Virus record (IMG/VR): IMGVR_UViG_651053023_000003
Location: 1-45,038 of that record
Source: a virus
Taxonomy: Duplodnaviria; Heunggongvirae; Uroviricota; Caudoviricetes
DNA length: 45,038 bases
Direction: 5' to 3' (one strand)
Position numbers and translations under genes: made by a program. Below the pieces are notes generated by a model. The model was given only the letters and a program-made list of their open reading frames with translations. It had not been told where the DNA came from and ran no database searches. Shown here in pieces: positions 3,394 to 16,657 of the stretch (within the stretch, counting starts at the first letter, position 1; each line of letters starts with the position of its first letter).

Positions 3394-3739
3394 TTTTATG
3401 TCCTTTGCATTTGTTCAGATAGCCCTGTGTTCAGCAGGGCGGTCAGGTACTTGAACACCGTGCAAAGTCGGCCCGTATCCTTAACCTTTCGGCTGTTTTT
3501 CGGTATACGCGCTACCCGACCATATCTGAGAAATGGACATAAAAAAGCCGCATGACTGACGGGTGCGGTTTCCGCTTTGCAAGGTGTGTTCAGCACCATG
3601 AAGCGGAATATAGCCCCGTTAATGCGGATTTGTCAAATCATGTAGGCCTTATCTTGCTGTAAGCCGCGCCATTCGGGCTTTTCCCCATATTTGGGGAAAA
3701 CTATCTGCGAATTATTCACCTTTGACGGCAAGTTGCAGG

Positions 3740-7030: not shown

Positions 7031-7163
7031 TTTTTGGGACTCCTGGCTGATTAAGTACGTCGATGAGTCGTTTCCATCCGTCACGTAATTTGCGGGTGAT
7101 TCGTTCAAGTAAAGATTCGGAAGGGCAGCCAGCAACAGGCCACCCTGCAATGGCATATTGCAT
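6999..7163 (-). CDS. cIII: CIII (FtsH inhibitor, stabilises CII)
   Basis: 54-aa MQYAIAGWPVAGCPSESLLERITRKLRDGWKRLIDVLNQPGVPKNGSNTYGYPD, essentially lambda CIII from memory; AAGGAG Shine-Dalgarno upstream. Confidence 0.85.
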   Translation of the reverse strand: MQYAIAGWPVAGCPSESLLERITRKLRDGWKRLIDVLNQPGVPKNGSNTYGYPD

Positions 7164-7759
7164 GGTGTGCTCCTTATTTATACATAACGAAAACGCCTCG
7201 AGTGAAGCGTTATTGGTATGCATATAAAAAGGCCCTCACACTGGAGGGCAAAGAAGATTTCCAATAATCAGAACAAGTCGGCTCCTGTTTAGTTACGAGC
7301 GACATTGCTCCGTGTATTCACTCGTTGGAATGAATACACAGTGCAGTGTTTATTCGTATGCCTGTCTTTTAACCACATCAGGCTCGGTGGTTCTCGTGTA
7401 CCCCTACAGCGAGAAATCGGATAAACTCTATTCACCCCCTACAGAGAGAATGATGGAGATTCACCGATGAGTAACTGGTGGCAGGAACTATTACGTTTCT
7501 TCCTGCGTGGTCTTACGCTACAACAGTTAATTCATATGCTTATTATTTTAATTGCCTTGATAATAATCACCCCTGCATCAATTAAAGAGTGGGTAGATAT
7601 AAGGAACCCAGAAATACTTCCAGATCACTGGATGTATTACGCAATGCTTTTGTGTATCAGTTATGTTCTGAACAGGGTGATGGAGTTTATATTTCTGGCA
7701 TCTTCAGACAGATATAAAAAATATCTCAGTAAGAGAGATGAGGCTAAAGTAATTGTGGA

Positions 7760-7768
7760 GACTGAGCG
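7760..7768. repeat. IS10 target-site duplication, left copy GACTGAGCG
   Basis: Identical 9 bp at 9098-9106 directly flanking the other IS10 end. Confidence 0.9.
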
Positions 7769-9097
7769 CTGAGAGATCCCCTCATAATTTCCCCAAAGCG
7801 TAACCATGTGTGAATAAATTTTGAGCTAGTAGGGTTGCAGCCACGAGTAAGTCTTCCCTTGTTATTGTGTAGCCAGAATGCCGCAAAACTTCCATGCCTA
7901 AGCGAACTGTTGAGAGTACGTTTCGATTTCTGACTGTGTTAGCCTGGAAGTGCTTGTCCCAACCTTGTTTCTGAGCATGAACGCCCGCAAGCCAACATGT
8001 TAGTTGAAGCATCAGGGCGATTAGCAGCATGATATCAAAACGCTCTGAGCTGCTCGTTCGGCTATGGCGTAGGCCTAGTCCGTAGGCAGGACTTTTCAAG
8101 TCTCGGAAGGTTTCTTCAATCTGCATTCGCTTCGAATAGATATTAACAAGTTGTTTGGGTGTTCGAATTTCAACAGGTAAGTTAGTTGCTAGAACCCATG
8201 GCTCCTTTGCCGACGCTGAGTAGATTTTAGGTGACGGGTGGTGACAATGAGTCCGTGTCGAGCGCTGATTTTTTCGGCCTTTAGAGCGAGATTTATACAA
8301 TAGAATTTGGCATGAGATTGGATTGCTTTTAGTCAGCCTCTTATAGCCTAAAGTCTTTGAGTGACTAGATGACATATCATGTAAGTTGCTGATAGGTTTC
8401 CAGTTTTCCGCTCCTAGGTCTGCATATTGTACTTTTCCTCTTACTCGACTTAACCAGTACCAACCCAGCTTCTCAACGGATTTATACCATGGCACTTTAA
8501 AGCCAGCATCACTGACAATGAGCGGTGTGGTGTTACTCGGTAGAATGCTCGCAAGGTCGGCTAGAAATTGGTCATGAGCTTTCTTTGAACATTGCTCTGA
8601 AAGCGGGAACGCTTTCTCATAAAGAGTAACAGAACGACCGTGTAGTGCGACTGAAGCTCGCAATACCATAAGTCGTTTTTGCTCACGAATATCAGACCAG
8701 TCAACAAGTACAATGGGCATCGTATTGCCCGAACAGATAAAGCTAGCATGCCAACGGTATACAGCGAGTCGCTCTTTGTGGAGGTGACGATTACCTAACA
8801 ATCGGTCGATTCGTTTGATGTTATGTTTTGTTCTCGCTTTGGTTGGCAGGTTACGGCCAAGTTCGGTAAGAGTGAGAGTTTTACAGTCAAGTAATGCGTG
8901 GCAAGCCAACGTTAAGCTGTTGAGTCGTTTTAAGTGTAATTCGGGGCAGAATTGGTAAAGAGAGTCGTGTAAAATATCGAGTTCGCACATCTTGTTGTCT
9001 GATTATTGATTTTTCGCGAAACCATTTGATCATATGACAAGATGTGTATCCACCTTAACTTAATGATTTTTACCAAAATCATTAGGGGATTCATCAG
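7769..9097 (-). mobile_element. IS10 insertion sequence (1329 bp)
   Basis: Inside end CTGAGAGATCCCCTCATAATTTCCCC at 7769; outside end (reverse complement CTGATGAATCCCCTAATGATTTTGGTAAAAATCATTAAG) ends at 9097; length 1329 bp; intact transposase. Confidence 0.95.
7782..8990 (-). CDS. IS10 transposase
   Basis: 402-aa ORF MCELDILHDSLYQFCPELHLKRLNSLTLACHALLDCK... matches IS10 transposase from memory. Confidence 0.95.
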   Translation of the reverse strand: MCELDILHDSLYQFCPELHLKRLNSLTLACHALLDCKTLTLTELGRNLPTKARTKHNIKRIDRLLGNRHLHKERLAVYRWHASFICSGNTMPIVLVDWSDIREQKRLMVLRASVALHGRSVTLYEKAFPLSEQCSKKAHDQFLADLASILPSNTTPLIVSDAGFKVPWYKSVEKLGWYWLSRVRGKVQYADLGAENWKPISNLHDMSSSHSKTLGYKRLTKSNPISCQILLYKSRSKGRKNQRSTRTHCHHPSPKIYSASAKEPWVLATNLPVEIRTPKQLVNIYSKRMQIEETFRDLKSPAYGLGLRHSRTSSSERFDIMLLIALMLQLTCWLAGVHAQKQGWDKHFQANTVRNRNVLSTVRLGMEVLRHSGYTITREDLLVAATLLAQNLFTHGYALGKL

Positions 9098-9106
9098 GAC
9101 TGAGCG
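9098..9106. repeat. IS10 target-site duplication, right copy GACTGAGCG
   Basis: Identical to 7760-7768. Confidence 0.9.
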
Positions 9107-9365
9107 CCTGTTCAATTCTCTGAGTATTCAGGAAAAAGAGGTTTTAGCATTTGCTGTTATGGCAAATAACAAAATCGTACTTAAGCACGGCGATCCGGTC
9201 GCTTTATCTCTTATGAGAAAAGGCCTTCTCCATCGCTCAGGTGTGACTTACAGCGCGTCAGGTAAAGAGAAATTTGTTATACCTGACGTCTGGTTCCATG
9301 AGTGTTATATGCGCTTTGCTGGTAAAGCTGATGAGCTAATTTAGTTCCTCGACGGCGGGGGATCG

Positions 9366-9783: not shown

Positions 9784-9830
9784 TGCCAGTCTGTTCCGTT
9801 TGGCTTACAGCGTCCTGCTGATGAGTTAAC

Positions 9831-9948
9831 TTTATCGAAATGATAAATTAATGGCAATAGCAAAATGATAAATTGTTTTAGTTTTCAAATATCCTGTTGA
9901 TTATTATGGTTTTTTATTTGATTGCAGGAATTTATCAGAAGGAATAAA
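9831..9948. promoter_or_regulatory. OL operator/pL region
   Basis: 17-bp palindromic site TTTATCGAAATGATAAA (9831-9847) and related TTTATCAGAAGGAATAA (9932-9948); same half-site as in the cI-cro intergenic region; exact pL -35/-10 not resolved. Confidence 0.5.
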
Positions 9949-10049: not shown

Positions 10050-10078
10050 GCAAAGAAAACCCGGCACTGAGGCCGGGT
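10050..10078 (-). terminator. Rho-independent terminator ending the cI-distal cassette
   Basis: On minus strand: perfect 6-7 bp GC stem CCCGGC-loop-GCCGGG followed by TTTCTTTG, immediately after the stop of the 227-aa gene. Confidence 0.7.
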
Positions 10079-10083
10079 GTGTA

Positions 10084-10767
10084 TTAGGGGGTTGAGACTC
10101 CAGAGAGCAATCCGTAGATTTTATCTACAGCAAATGCTAATGCTGGCAAGCCAAGGGCCCATTTGATTATATCAAGCTTAACATCACTAAGCTTACCTTC
10201 TAACTTTGCCTCTTGAACAGAAAGAGCTGCATCGATCTTTTTTGATTGGGAGTCAAGGGCACTCTCAATTCTACTCGATTGTATGTCCAGACGACTGTTG
10301 ATTTGTTCGTGCTGAGTAACAACTAAATGCTTCATCTCCTTTATATCTGAAGCCATTAGTTCACGCCATTTGGCCATATCAGCCTGCATTTTTGAGGCCA
10401 CTGCATCCACTTCAGCTTTATTTGCCTTCAGAAGTGCCTGTATTTCGTTTCTGCTCAAATCGGACATTGCGGTTCCCTGTATAGGAGTTTCCTCGTACGG
10501 TGGGATAACATTAGATTGTCCTTTACAATCGGCAACCCCTCCTTTATCTACGATTGTAGCAGTTAGCTGGGAATTGGTCGCATCATCCACCATGTTTTTT
10601 GGTGAATAAGAGGAAATAGGCGTAGAAAACAGATTACCTTTTGCTGTTTCCATGAACATCATGAAATCGCGAGTATTAACGTTATTCAGGGAAACTTGCA
10701 GTGGTTTAACAATACTTGATGTTTTGTAAGTAATAGTTAAATCACCTACTTCTTCCGGTTGTTGCAT
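10084..10767 (-). CDS. Hypothetical protein with long coiled-coil region and C-terminal hydrophobic segment (possible membrane anchor); rexB-position gene
   Basis: 227-aa ORF; start ATG overlaps upstream gene stop (TAATG); heptad-like region KANKAEVDAVASKMQADMAKW...; C-terminus IIKWALGLPALAFAVDKIYGLLSGV; AT-rich. Confidence 0.6.
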   Translation of the reverse strand: MQQPEEVGDLTITYKTSSIVKPLQVSLNNVNTRDFMMFMETAKGNLFSTPISSYSPKNMVDDATNSQLTATIVDKGGVADCKGQSNVIPPYEETPIQGTAMSDLSRNEIQALLKANKAEVDAVASKMQADMAKWRELMASDIKEMKHLVVTQHEQINSRLDIQSSRIESALDSQSKKIDAALSVQEAKLEGKLSDVKLDIIKWALGLPALAFAVDKIYGLLSGVSTP

Positions 10768-11099
10768 TACGACTTCGCTCCATTAGAGTTTTGTGCCTCT
10801 AATTGTTCGAAAAGAAGAACTATATTCTCCTGAAGAGCCTTTAGTTGTGCCATTGGCATTATCACAGTGCATTGCTGATTGAGTTCATTTACAGAGCCTA
10901 TCTGCATATTCGCTCTACCTGGTTGATCTGGTATATCATTTTGGGATAGTACCGCAGGTATTGACTTGTTTGCGATAAAATGTATACAAATGAGATTTTT
11001 TTCCGCTCCCGGTAGTGGAGCAAAACTAGCGAAGTCCGCATAGGTTTCAATATAATCCACAGATGGTTTAATTTTGACCGGTTCCATAACGCCTCTCAT
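10767..11099 (-). CDS. Hypothetical small soluble protein; rexA-position gene
   Basis: ORF directly downstream of cI; possible starts at ATG 11099 or ATG 11087 (the latter preceded by AGAGG); translationally coupled to the next gene. Confidence 0.55.
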   Translation of the reverse strand: MRGVMEPVKIKPSVDYIETYADFASFAPLPGAEKNLICIHFIANKSIPAVLSQNDIPDQPGRANMQIGSVNELNQQCTVIMPMAQLKALQENIVLLFEQLEAQNSNGAKS

Positions 11100-11104
11100 C
11101 AAAT

Positions 11105-11133
11105 ATTGTAGGTTTTTTAATTCAATGTGTTAA
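11105..11133 (-). promoter_or_regulatory. Candidate sigma70 promoter for the two-gene cassette (TTAACA-N17-TACAAT)
   Basis: On minus strand: -35 TTAACA (plus 11128-11133), 17-bp spacer, -10 TACAAT (plus 11105-11110), ending 5 nt before the first ATG. Confidence 0.5.
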
Positions 11134-11210
11134 ATGTTGGTGGTGTGTTATTTAAAGTTATTTTGACATCCTCCACGCCCTGAAGGACGGGGCTTGTCAC
11201 GTACTTGAAG

Positions 11211-11915
11211 TCACAAACTTTTCAGCCACTCCCTTGCCTCGATGTCATCCAGATGACGAGATTGCTTCAGAATACCAGCCACATACTCCACCTTTGCTAC
11301 TTGATGATAAGGTAACGTTATTGGCCTGTGGTCCTGGTTGATGCTTGTAAATTGGTATTCTCCATCTCTGTCATAGCCAAGAATCTTGATCATGTTGTGT
11401 CCTTCAACGGTTCTGACAAACACCTCATCCCCCGGGAATACTTTGGTGTTAGGCTCAATGAGTACATATTCTCCTGATTTTATTCTGGGCCACATGCTGT
11501 CTCCTTTCACACGAAGACCAAAGGCATCTGGATCATCACTATAAATCTTGAGCCACCCATCGCGCTCTTCGGTCATCTCGATGGCACCATCAACACCAAG
11601 AATTGCCTCACCAACCACGCGCACTAACCCTTTTCTTACCTGACCGACAAAAGTTAAAGAATCTGAGCATGATGCAATTGGTGTTACATCATGTACCAAA
11701 TCAAGCCACCCATTAGGTAACCCAAGTGCGGCTTCGAATTTTCTTGCTAGTTTATCCCCTATGTTTCGAGTGCTTTTTTCACCGGAGACTTGCGTGAGTT
11801 GAGAAGGGCTAACTCCAAGCTTATCGGCAAAGCTTGCATTAGTGTTACCCGCGATTTTTTTATGCTCATCTAGCAAAAACGCCAGATTCGATTTGCGAAT
11901 ATCTTTGTTTTCCAT
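11211..11915 (-). CDS. cI: CI-type repressor (N-terminal HTH, C-terminal S24 LexA-like peptidase domain)
   Basis: 234-aa ORF; HTH region GNTNASFADKLGVSPSQLTQVSGEK; C-terminal S24 signature around GDSMWP...KILG; divergent from cro across an operator region. Confidence 0.85.
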   Translation of the reverse strand: MENKDIRKSNLAFLLDEHKKIAGNTNASFADKLGVSPSQLTQVSGEKSTRNIGDKLARKFEAALGLPNGWLDLVHDVTPIASCSDSLTFVGQVRKGLVRVVGEAILGVDGAIEMTEERDGWLKIYSDDPDAFGLRVKGDSMWPRIKSGEYVLIEPNTKVFPGDEVFVRTVEGHNMIKILGYDRDGEYQFTSINQDHRPITLPYHQVAKVEYVAGILKQSRHLDDIEAREWLKSL

Positions 11916-11933: not shown

Positions 11934-11999
11934 TTTAGTAAATGGATAAATACGCATTTTGATAAATCTCCATTGCAGTTTATTTATCAAGATGGTAAA
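11934..11999. promoter_or_regulatory. OR operator region with pRM/pR
   Basis: 17-bp sites TTTAGTAAATGGATAAA (11934-11950) and TTTATCAAGATGGTAAA (11983-11999) with half-site TTTATC/GATAAA, plus inverted repeat TTGATAAAT...ATTTATCAA between them. Confidence 0.55.
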
Positions 12000-12028
12000 G
12001 TTGCTCTGTGTGATAAACGGAGGCACTA

Positions 12029-13945: not shown

Positions 13946-15275
13946 GACAGGATATCGAAGCGAGCGTTATCGGTGGCCTGCTGATTGGTGGATTAACTCC
14001 AACCGCCAGTGACGTTCTGGCAACGCTTGAGCCGGAAGCGTTTTCAATTCCGCTCTACAGGAAAGCCTTCGAGGTTATCCGCAAGCAGGCGAGAAACAGA
14101 AACCTAATCGATGCGCTGATGGTTGCCGAGGCGTGCGGAGAGGAGCATTTCACGTCAATCCTGATGACCAGCAAAAACTGCCCGAGTGCCGCAAACCTGA
14201 AGGGATATGCCGGAATGGTCGCGGATAACTATCACCGCCGTCTGGTGCTGGAAATCATGGATGAAATGCGTGAACCAATTCAGAGCGGAACCATCGACGC
14301 ATCGAGTCAGGCGATGGATGAGCTTGTAAAGCGTCTCTCAGCCATCAGAAAGCCCCGTGACGAGGTTAAACCTGTACGGTTAGGGGAAATCATCACCGAC
14401 TACACTGACACGCTTGACAGGCGTCTGAGGAACGGAGAAGGGTCAGATACCCTGAAGACCGGAATCGAAGAACTTGACGCCATCACCGGAGGGATGAACG
14501 CAGAAGACCTGGTGATTATCGCTGCTCGTCCTGGTATGGGGAAAACCGAGCTGGCGCTGAAGATTGCCGAAGGCGTTGCAAGCCGCGTTATTCCAGGTTC
14601 TGACGTTCGGCGCGGAGTATTGATTTTCTCAATGGAAATGAGCGCATTGCAGATTGCAGAGCGAAGCATTGCCAACGCCGGGAGGATGTCGGTTAGCGTA
14701 CTGCGAAATCCTGCATCGATGGATGACGAAGGCTGGGCGCGTGTTGCTAACGGCATGAGTCAGCTTGCAGATTTGGATGTATGGGTAGTCGATGCCTCGC
14801 GGTTATCGGTCGAAGAAATACGCTCAATCGCAGAACGGCACAAACAGGAAAATCCAAACCTCTCACTCATCATGGCGGATTATCTTGGCCTGATTGAGAA
14901 GCCGAAAGCAGACCGCAACGACCTCGCAATTGCTCACATCTCCGGAAGCCTGAAGGCGATGGCGAAAGACCTGAAAACGCCTGTTATCTCCCTGAGTCAG
15001 CTTTCTCGCGATGTTGAGAAGCGACCAAACAAACGCCCGACAAACGCAGATTTGCGTGATTCAGGAAGCATTGAGCAGGACGCAGACTCAATCATCATGC
15101 TCTATCGGGAAGCGGTGTATGACGAGAACAGTAGCGCCGCGCCATTTGCTGAAATCATCGTGACGAAAAACCGTTTTGGCTCACTTGGTACGGTTTACCA
15201 GCGGTTCTGTAACGGACACTTTGAACCGCCCCGGAAATCCTGGAGACTAAACTCCCTGAGAAAGAGGTAAACAGG

Positions 15276-15602
15276 ATGACTAAAAATACTCGTTTTTCCC
15301 CCGAAGTCCGTCAGCGGGCGATTCGTATGGTTCTGGAAAGTCAGGATGAATATGACTCACAGTGGGCGGCAATTTGTTCCATTGCCCCAAAGATTGGCTG
15401 TACGCCGGAGACTCTGCGTGTCTGGGTTCGCCAGCATGAGCGGGATACCGGGGGCGGTGATGGTGGGCTCACCAGCGCTGAACGTCAGCGTCTGAAAGAG
15501 CTGGAACGTGAAAATCGTGAACTGCGCCGCAGTAACGATATCCTTCGCCAGGCTTCCGCTTATTTTGCGAAGGCGGAGTTCGACCGCCTCTGGAAAAAAT
15601 GA
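15276..15602 (+). CDS. IS3-family transposase OrfA
   Basis: 108-aa [38 protein letters not shown]... with HTH and leucine-zipper-like region. Confidence 0.85.
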
Positions 15603-16489
15603 TGCCACTGCTGGATAAGCTGCGTGAGCAGTACGGGGTCGGACCGGTATGCAGCGAACTGCATATTGCCCCGTCAACGTATTACCATTGTCAGCAACAG
15701 CGACATCATCCGGATAAACGCAGTGCCCGTGCGCAGCACGACGACTGGCTGAAGAGAGAGATACAGCGCGTATACGATGAAAATCATCAGGTGTACGGTG
15801 TGCGTAAAGTCTGGCGTCAGTTGTTACGGGAAGGAATCAGGGTGGCCAGATGTACAGTGGCACGTCTCATGGCGGTTATGGGACTTGCCGGTGTTCTCCG
15901 GGGTAAAAAGGTCCGTACGACCATCAGCCGGAAAGCCGTTGCCGCAGGCGACCGCGTAAACCGTCAGTTCGTGGCAGAACGACCTGACCAGCTGTGGGTG
16001 GCTGATTTTACTTACGTCAGCACATGGCAGGGCTTCGTCTATGTGGCGTTTATCATTGATGTGTTTGCCGGATACATCGTGGGGTGGCGGGTCTCATCGT
16101 CTATGGAAACGACATTCGTGCTGGATGCGCTGGAGCAGGCGTTGTGGGCCCGTCGTCCGTCTGGCACCATCCATCACAGCGATAAAGGCTCTCAGTATGT
16201 GTCACTGGCCTATACGGAGCGACTAAAAGAAGCCGGATTACTGGCATCAACAGGGAGTACAGGCGACTCGTATGACAACGCGATGGCTGAGAGCATCAAT
16301 GGTCTTTACAAAGCGGAGGTAATACACCGTAAGAGCTGGAAAAACCGTGCAGAAGTGGAACTGGCCACACTAACGTGGGTGGACTGGTATAACAATCGAC
16401 GATTGCTGGGAAGGCTGGGCCATACTCCTCCGGCAGAAGCAGAAAAAGCTTATTATGCTTCCATCGGAAACAATGATCTGGCAGCCTGA
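15599..16489 (+). CDS. IS3-family transposase OrfB (DDE catalytic domain; expressed as OrfAB by -1 frameshift)
   Basis: 296-aa ORF with integrase-core motifs; overlaps the orfA end at the A-rich run around 15590-15603. Confidence 0.85.
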
Positions 16490-16657
16490 GTTCACAGATA
16501 AAACACTCTCCAGGAAACCCGGGGCGGTTCACTTTGTTGCATGTGACCAGGATGAAGCCAGACAGATTTGCACAGCATCAAATGCGCCTGCTGCGCGTGG
16601 CAGACGATATGCACAAGGGGCGGACGTATGACCATCTACATCACTGAGCTAATAACA

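Follow-up and report, generated by a model that had tools for sequence, protein, structure and literature searches.

Background

RexAB of phage lambda, and then more recently BstA and HigBAC, have been found in the cI-N locus of prophages, and the mechanism of RexAB is still not clear. This common location of RexAB, BstA and HigBAC has been termed a variable defence locus or hotspot (PMC8585504; bioRxiv 10.1101/2024.02.24.581848). In BTP1, bstA lies downstream of cI, and the paper describing BstA refers to that region, between cI and N, as a mosaic hotspot. Here we describe a pair of genes, named A and B, that occupies this locus in the IMG/VR virus record IMGVR_UViG_651053023_000003 (45,038 nucleotides (nt); this whole stretch is referred to as the window, and all positions are given in its numbering). 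The window contains a lambdoid prophage, with 13,171 nt identical to the chromosome of Escherichia coli UMNF18, and the region of the cassette is read on the minus strand. We tentatively regard the A-B cassette as an accessory ('moron') cargo that would be expressed in the lysogen and would most likely act as a two-component phage-exclusion module.

Gene order between cI and pL

On the minus strand, a cI-like repressor gene is followed by a spacer, gene A, gene B, a terminator, the operator and promoter oL/pL, and N. Compared with the lambda map, this order matches cI-rexA-rexB-tIMM-pL-N. The cI-like gene (11211-11915) encodes a prophage repressor of 234 amino acids (aa) with a helix-turn-helix (HTH) domain and an S24 peptidase domain (Pfam Peptidase_S24, 4e-16; phrog_4, transcriptional repressor; LexA family regulator in PGAP). 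It is separated by 123 nt from gene A (10767-11087, 106 aa), and gene B (10084-10767, 227 aa) follows, joined to A by a TAATG stop/start overlap. The downstream boundary of the slot is formed by oL/pL (~9828-9880), a TTGCCA-N17-TAAAGT promoter overlapped by repeated TGATAAAT half-sites, and beyond it lies the gene for the N antiterminator (9366-9638/9710; PF25694, 1e-31). The identity of oL/pL is based on two features: it is paired with pR/oR (11972-12002) as an inverted repeat of 31 nt, and the half-sites cluster in the operator regions, which hold five of the eight exact TGATAAAT copies in the window (eight or more copies were obtained in none of 100 shuffles).

Because it lies between the cI-like gene and oL/pL-N, the cassette is at the exact position of rexA-rexB in lambda. 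A preliminary description, made from the letters of the window alone, had placed it there as two overlapping genes for proteins of about 106-110 and 227 aa, and the coordinates of the flanking genes, of oL/pL and of the open reading frames bear this out. The same description called the cassette markedly AT-rich, which was an overstatement: its GC content of 41% compares with 47% in the window and 44.5% in cI, and the AT bias is only modest.

Exchange of cargo at the slot

In blastn comparisons with the prophage loci L009-L012, which have the same cI allele but carry other cargo, homology stops at 11206, 5 nt past the cI stop codon, and restarts at 10078/10079. Based on these limits, the exchangeable unit extends from 10079 to 11205 (minus strand) and consists of a 118-nt leader region, which makes up most of the spacer, followed by genes A and B; the terminator is part of the slot. 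At least four cargos were found behind essentially one cI allele (WP_000428097/8/9). The first is the A-B pair, and the second is a pair of 120 and 42 aa with no assigned function. The third is a trio of HigB, an HTH antitoxin and a chaperone-like protein, which match PD-Lambda-2_A, PD-Lambda-2_B and PD-T4-9_C. The fourth is a DUF3024 protein (PADLOC candidate PDC-S43) together with an HK542-type pair. PD-Lambda-2/HigBAC, a validated defence system, is thus a substitute for the cassette at identical breakpoints, and this strengthens the exclusion-type context that had been proposed at the outset. The A-B cassette is also found behind a different cI allele; among 5,426 complete E. coli genomes, 40 carry it.

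The rho-independent terminator at 10050-10078 (minus strand) has a 7-bp stem with six GC pairs (10078-10059), followed by UUUUCUUU. It falls within the stretch of homology to L009-L012, and a terminator is recognized in the same position at the Yersinia, L006 and L007 loci. The stem and U tract of the preliminary description therefore stand, but the terminator is not the cassette's own, since homology to the prophages with other cargo resumes at 10078. Judged from its sequence and position, it would be a tIMM-like feature of the slot that closes the cI-cargo transcription unit and is common to the alternative cargos.

Proteins A and B

Protein A is a small, acidic protein (pI 4.75), predicted to be soluble. 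In its AlphaFold2 model, which has a mean predicted local distance difference test (pLDDT) score of 82.8, a short strand and a long beta-hairpin are followed by a C-terminal helix. No family in Pfam, PHROGs, PADLOC or NCBIfam was matched by A. Used as a profile to search 1.84 billion representative proteins, A yielded only 17 close relatives, none of them informative; the Yersinia counterpart is 51% identical. Foldseek against BFVD found two uncharacterised phage proteins (E ~5e-3), and sequence searches of the PDB with the A and B profiles gave no match. A PhdYeFM hit of one member of the A alignment (E 0.1) is noise.

In the AlphaFold2 model of protein B, residues 7-46 form a beta-beta-alpha head (pLDDT ~80-87), residues 50-99 are a disordered linker and a single long helix takes up residues 103-222. 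The models and alignments together divide this helix into an invariant neck motif (~104-136), a coiled-coil stalk and a conserved C-terminal anchor, IIKWALGLPALAF. The anchor is nearly invariant but marginally hydrophobic, and about five residues follow it in the B subtype of the window. B may insert into the membrane via this anchor; A and nearly all of B are predicted to be cytoplasmic, without a signal peptide. The head of B is not a duplicate of A, or the reverse, as the hhalign probability for this relationship is 1%.

B belongs to phrog_14825 (3e-127), for which no function is assigned. It also shows a match to the Pfam family CCDC90-like/DUF1640 (PF07798) of 26.0 bits (E 9e-6), which is below the gathering cut-off of 33.5, and the label given by PGAP to the common B allele is 'CCDC90 family protein'. 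The match runs from residues 106-213 of B to profile positions 63-166 of 175, and covers only the stalk and anchor; profile positions 1-62, the head, are unaligned, the head of B being a different, small beta-beta-alpha unit. The statement that neither protein resembled anything nameable accordingly holds for A, whereas B has its PHROG family and this sub-threshold match. As for the soluble-plus-membrane architecture proposed for the pair, a soluble A and a coiled-coil, membrane-directed B agree with the models, including the long coiled coil originally noticed in B; the C-terminal hydrophobic segment proves only marginal, and membrane insertion is suggested rather than evident.

Distribution and modularity of the pair

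The A-B pair was found in prophages of E. coli, Klebsiella, Enterobacter, Yersinia, Serratia and Providencia, as well as in unassigned prophage contigs, with identities across the homologous pairs of 27-67% for A and 36-67% for B. In nine of the 11 distinct loci first inspected, a cI-like repressor immediately precedes the pair and a terminator comes after it, and the same arrangement behind a cI-like repressor exists in 20 of 31 IMG/VR loci. At one locus, the pair follows an Arc/Mnt-like repressor and adjoins antirepressor genes, and at another its neighbours are tail genes.

All of the B-like proteins carry the neck motif, approximately S(R/K)xE(L/I)xALLKANKAEVDAVAxxMxxxMAxWRE, and two types of anchor were found after the stalk. 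Type 1 is that of the window, and type 2 consists of a clear transmembrane helix and a Pro/Gln-rich tail of 40-60 aa, as in the 206-aa protein of HK542 and HK244. The N-terminus of B varies with the gene that precedes it, and at least four unrelated partner families are recognized. A-type partners always occur with a head-bearing B (at least 10 lineages, both anchor types), and phrog_5893 partners (143-144 aa; HK542, L011, L013, L018, L033 and others) always occur with a B that lacks the head and bears a K[LV]V[GA]G peptide, again with both anchor types. Other N-terminal variants of B are accompanied by a third type of partner, 99-100 aa long, or by one of several zinc-ribbon proteins. The zinc-ribbon partners, with two CxxC motifs, were seen at L020:2188-3097, at ~2520-3430 of L040, L041 and L045, and at L052:1774-2605. 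These pairs are outside the repressor slot, among tail genes or beside secreted or lipoprotein-like morons, and one of them is in a GC-rich, non-enterobacterial contig.

Among eight matched pairs, the stalk and anchor had the smallest mean pairwise distance (0.31); for A it was 0.55, and the head and the linker of B reached 0.68 and 0.85. This pattern of divergence, together with the tracking of the N-terminus by partner type, suggests that the partner recognises the N-terminus of B, and that the neck, stalk and anchor represent the common working part. On this basis the cassette may belong to a hitherto unrecognised modular family of lysogen-expressed anti-phage systems, in which interchangeable small sensors would act on the variable N-terminus of a DUF1640/CCDC90-like anchored coiled coil; this wider generalisation is offered with considerable reserve.

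Signals for expression

Upstream of gene A, at 11105-11133 (minus strand), there is a sigma-70 promoter-like site, TTAACA-N17-TACAAT, that agrees with 10 of 12 consensus positions, as had been described. When the 118-nt intergenic region was shuffled, about 2% of the shuffles held an equally good match (chance ~0.02), and the site is possibly a promoter of the cassette itself. A Shine-Dalgarno sequence, GAGAGG (11092-11097, minus strand), stands 4 nt ahead of the ATG at 11087. The same sequence precedes the start codon of the Yersinia homologue, and every homologue starts at the equivalent Met. For these reasons the product of gene A is taken to be the 106-aa protein from ATG 11087 and not one of the 110- or 111-aa forms from the alternative starts at 11099 and 11102. 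A leaderless mRNA from ATG 11099, one of the two options first considered, is rejected on the same grounds; the other, a short leader, is favoured by the signals in the sequence.

Directly after the cI stop codon, an imperfect hairpin is present (11150-11212, minus strand; RNA fold -16.9 kcal/mol, z -2.2). In the sequence and RNA fold of the cI-A region, this hairpin lacks a U-tract, so that no canonical terminator separates cI from A and read-through from the repressor promoter is expected. The cI gene is the probable source of this transcription into the cassette. Within the hairpin, a 31-nt stretch (11162-11192) is 100% identical to 44 Stx-phage records, including 933W and VT2-Sakai. In 933W it is found at 57866-57896, inside the small annotated ORF L0135, about 100 nt past the 3' end of the oppositely oriented L0136 and near hok/sok. 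A shared moron boundary and the remnant of a terminator are possible explanations for it. A search of Rfam assigned no RNA family to the cassette; elsewhere on the minus strand of the window, it gave matches to sRNA-Xcc1 (3433-3521, 68 bits) and to the lambda cIII thermoregulator element (7118-7176, 88 bits).

Comparison with known systems

The cassette resembles lambda RexAB in its slot, after cI, in the same orientation and ahead of the terminator and oL/pL, and in its composition of two genes, one for a soluble and one for a membrane-directed protein, which would be expressed in the lysogen alongside the repressor. The proteins themselves are different. In BLASTP and profile searches, the best E-value of A or B with RexA was 0.13, no similarity to RexB was found, and no Pfam Rex family was matched at E <= 1. 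The sizes are reversed, with 106 and 227 aa in the cassette against 279 and 144 aa for RexA and RexB. RexB is polytopic, with many 19-residue windows of Kyte-Doolittle mean >= 1.6, whereas B has none and combines a single marginal C-terminal anchor with a long coiled coil. The activity that characterises RexAB is exclusion of T4 rII, among other phages, with loss of membrane potential. Membership of the cassette in RexAB is thus rejected for lack of sequence similarity, in agreement with the preliminary description, which had seen no resemblance to either protein.

A related pair in cultured phages is that of HK542 and HK244 (phrog_5893 and phrog_5820, function not assigned), in which two overlapping genes occupy the same slot of a lambda-type immunity region. 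The larger protein of this pair, a coiled-coil membrane protein, shares the neck motif with B (33% identity over 121 residues, E 4e-11). It differs from B in being headless and in having a clear transmembrane helix and a Pro/Gln-rich tail, and its partner, of 144 aa, is of a family unrelated to A. The HK542 pair (L017:1953-3004) replaces rexAB, and related pairs exist in HK244 and L011, the latter preceded by the DUF3024 gene (PDC-S43). The immunity regions of HK244 and HK542 were reportedly first sequenced by Degnan et al. in 2007.

With the DUF1640/CCDC90-like proteins (PF07798; MCUR1, CCDC90B and Kcr_0859), B shares a coiled-coil stalk, and its C-terminal segment would correspond to the membrane anchor in which the stalk of that family ends. 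A trimeric coiled coil with a beta-layer neck motif has been published for this family (PMC4786415). The KANKAEVD sequence of B is only partly like the published [aliphatic]-A-T-K-[polar]-[DE] motif, and the AlphaFold2 model of B is monomeric. HigBAC/PD-Lambda-2 and BstA have in common with the cassette their niche and, presumably, the logic of their expression, but their proteins are unrelated to A and B, with no domain in common; no similarity of A or B to the BstA family was found in Pfam, PADLOC or PHROG.

Possible functions of the cassette

The position and architecture of the cassette make it a credible candidate for an exclusion system, and the following scheme is consistent with both. 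In the lysogen, transcription that starts at the repressor promoter, and possibly at a promoter of the cassette itself, would run through both genes to the slot terminator, and the TAATG overlap would couple the translation of A and B. B would be a tail-anchored, oligomeric coiled coil whose C-terminus would be inserted in, or attached to, the inner membrane and whose stalk would present the N-terminal head in the cytoplasm. A, as a small acidic beta-sheet protein, would dock on this head and serve as an exchangeable sensor or regulator. Infection by another phage might alter the A-B complex, and B would then either damage the membrane, leading to abortive infection, or trap or block a phage component at the membrane. 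Membrane damage in abortive infection has been proposed for RexB.

Several points weigh against this scheme. The argument for defence is one of association by position, and some relatives are found among tail genes, away from any repressor. In PADLOC-DB v2, A had no match and B showed only coiled-coil noise (HEC-07, E 0.009); PADLOC likewise gave no defence-family match for ten relatives. In the papers available for searching, nothing was found on these accessions, on DUF1640/CCDC90 in prophage defence or on the HK542/HK244 genes. The best 19-residue Kyte-Doolittle mean of the B anchor is 1.49, under the usual transmembrane cut-off of 1.6. Residue 215, in the conserved anchor, is aspartate in the window, whereas each of the 19 other family members in the alignment has tyrosine there, among them the common E. 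coli allele (WP_001187007). This common Y215 allele occurs, for example, in strain JBEHAAB-19-0176. Because of this change, and because the prophage has already been hit by two insertion sequence (IS) elements, the UMNF18 copy of the cassette may be impaired.

An anchored B might instead act with A at the step of entry, blocking DNA injection or an inner-membrane entry factor without killing the infected cell. Relatives of the pair do sit where known exclusion genes do, namely behind a repressor, within an immI-like Arc/ant region or amid tail genes, with P22 sieA and HK97 gp15 as positional parallels, and the transmembrane helix of the type-2 relatives would let their 40-60-aa Pro/Gln-rich tail face the periplasm. 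In the window, however, only about five residues extend past the anchor and the predicted location of A and almost all of B is the cytoplasm; in the family libraries, moreover, neither protein is similar to SieA, SieB or other exclusion families. Superinfection exclusion at entry thus seems an unlikely role for this cassette.

The tight linkage of the pair to repressor genes of several types (cI-like and Arc/Mnt-like) would also fit a function in lysogeny other than defence, such as tuning of the lysis-lysogeny switch or an effect on the physiology of the host membrane. RexA and RexB are reported to have secondary roles in regulation, and the eukaryotic members of the CCDC90 family are described in Pfam as membrane scaffolds, not immune proteins. 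We consider such a function rather improbable, because the rapid divergence of the partner and head relative to the conserved stalk is better explained by conflict-driven evolution, which is also favoured by the free exchange of partners and by the swapping of the cassette with a validated defence cargo.

It is similarly improbable that the UMNF18 cassette is an inactive remnant of a family that may itself be functional. The Y215D change (codon at 10125-10127) is private to this copy, and two insertions in the same prophage point in this direction. An IS10-type element splits the superinfection-exclusion gene sieB (7467-9344), leaving a 5' part at 7467-7769 and an apparent remainder at ~9042-9344, which adjoins N; the transposase gene of the element, annotated as ISVsa5, is at 7782-8990, and its RNA-OUT is at 8983-9052. 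In the region ~15223-16500, where an Rfam ALIL frameshift pseudoknot is found at 15557-15673, an IS1203 insertion (IS3 family) truncates a DnaB-like helicase gene, and the prophage is probably defective for replication. Both frames of the cassette are intact, however; A shows no difference from the common allele, and only about 2 of the 1171 nt set the whole cassette apart from the common E. coli allele.

Least probable is an addiction module that would stabilise the prophage, with B as a membrane toxin and A as its antidote and no role against other phages: a small acidic gene that overlaps a larger downstream one is the layout of type II toxin-antitoxin systems, and a genuine toxin-antitoxin-chaperone system, HigBAC, is an alternative cargo of the slot, but HigBAC is itself a defence system, and no toxin or antitoxin family in Pfam, PHROG, PADLOC or NCBIfam was matched by A or B.

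Conclusion

What was already known is the site and the logic of a soluble plus a membrane protein; what is new is the proteins. As a third, unrelated pair in the slot, with members in at least six enterobacterial genera, the A-B cassette stands as a strong candidate for a new exclusion system encoded by prophages. The presence of members of the wider family in the cultured lambda-immunity phages HK542 and HK244 makes this directly testable, and the exact breakpoints of the module make cloning and swapping of the cargo simple. If this interpretation is true, it would provide the first function for prokaryotic DUF1640/CCDC90-like membrane coiled-coil proteins, and would add to the defence repertoire a compact two-gene system and a new class of effector for prophage-encoded immunity.

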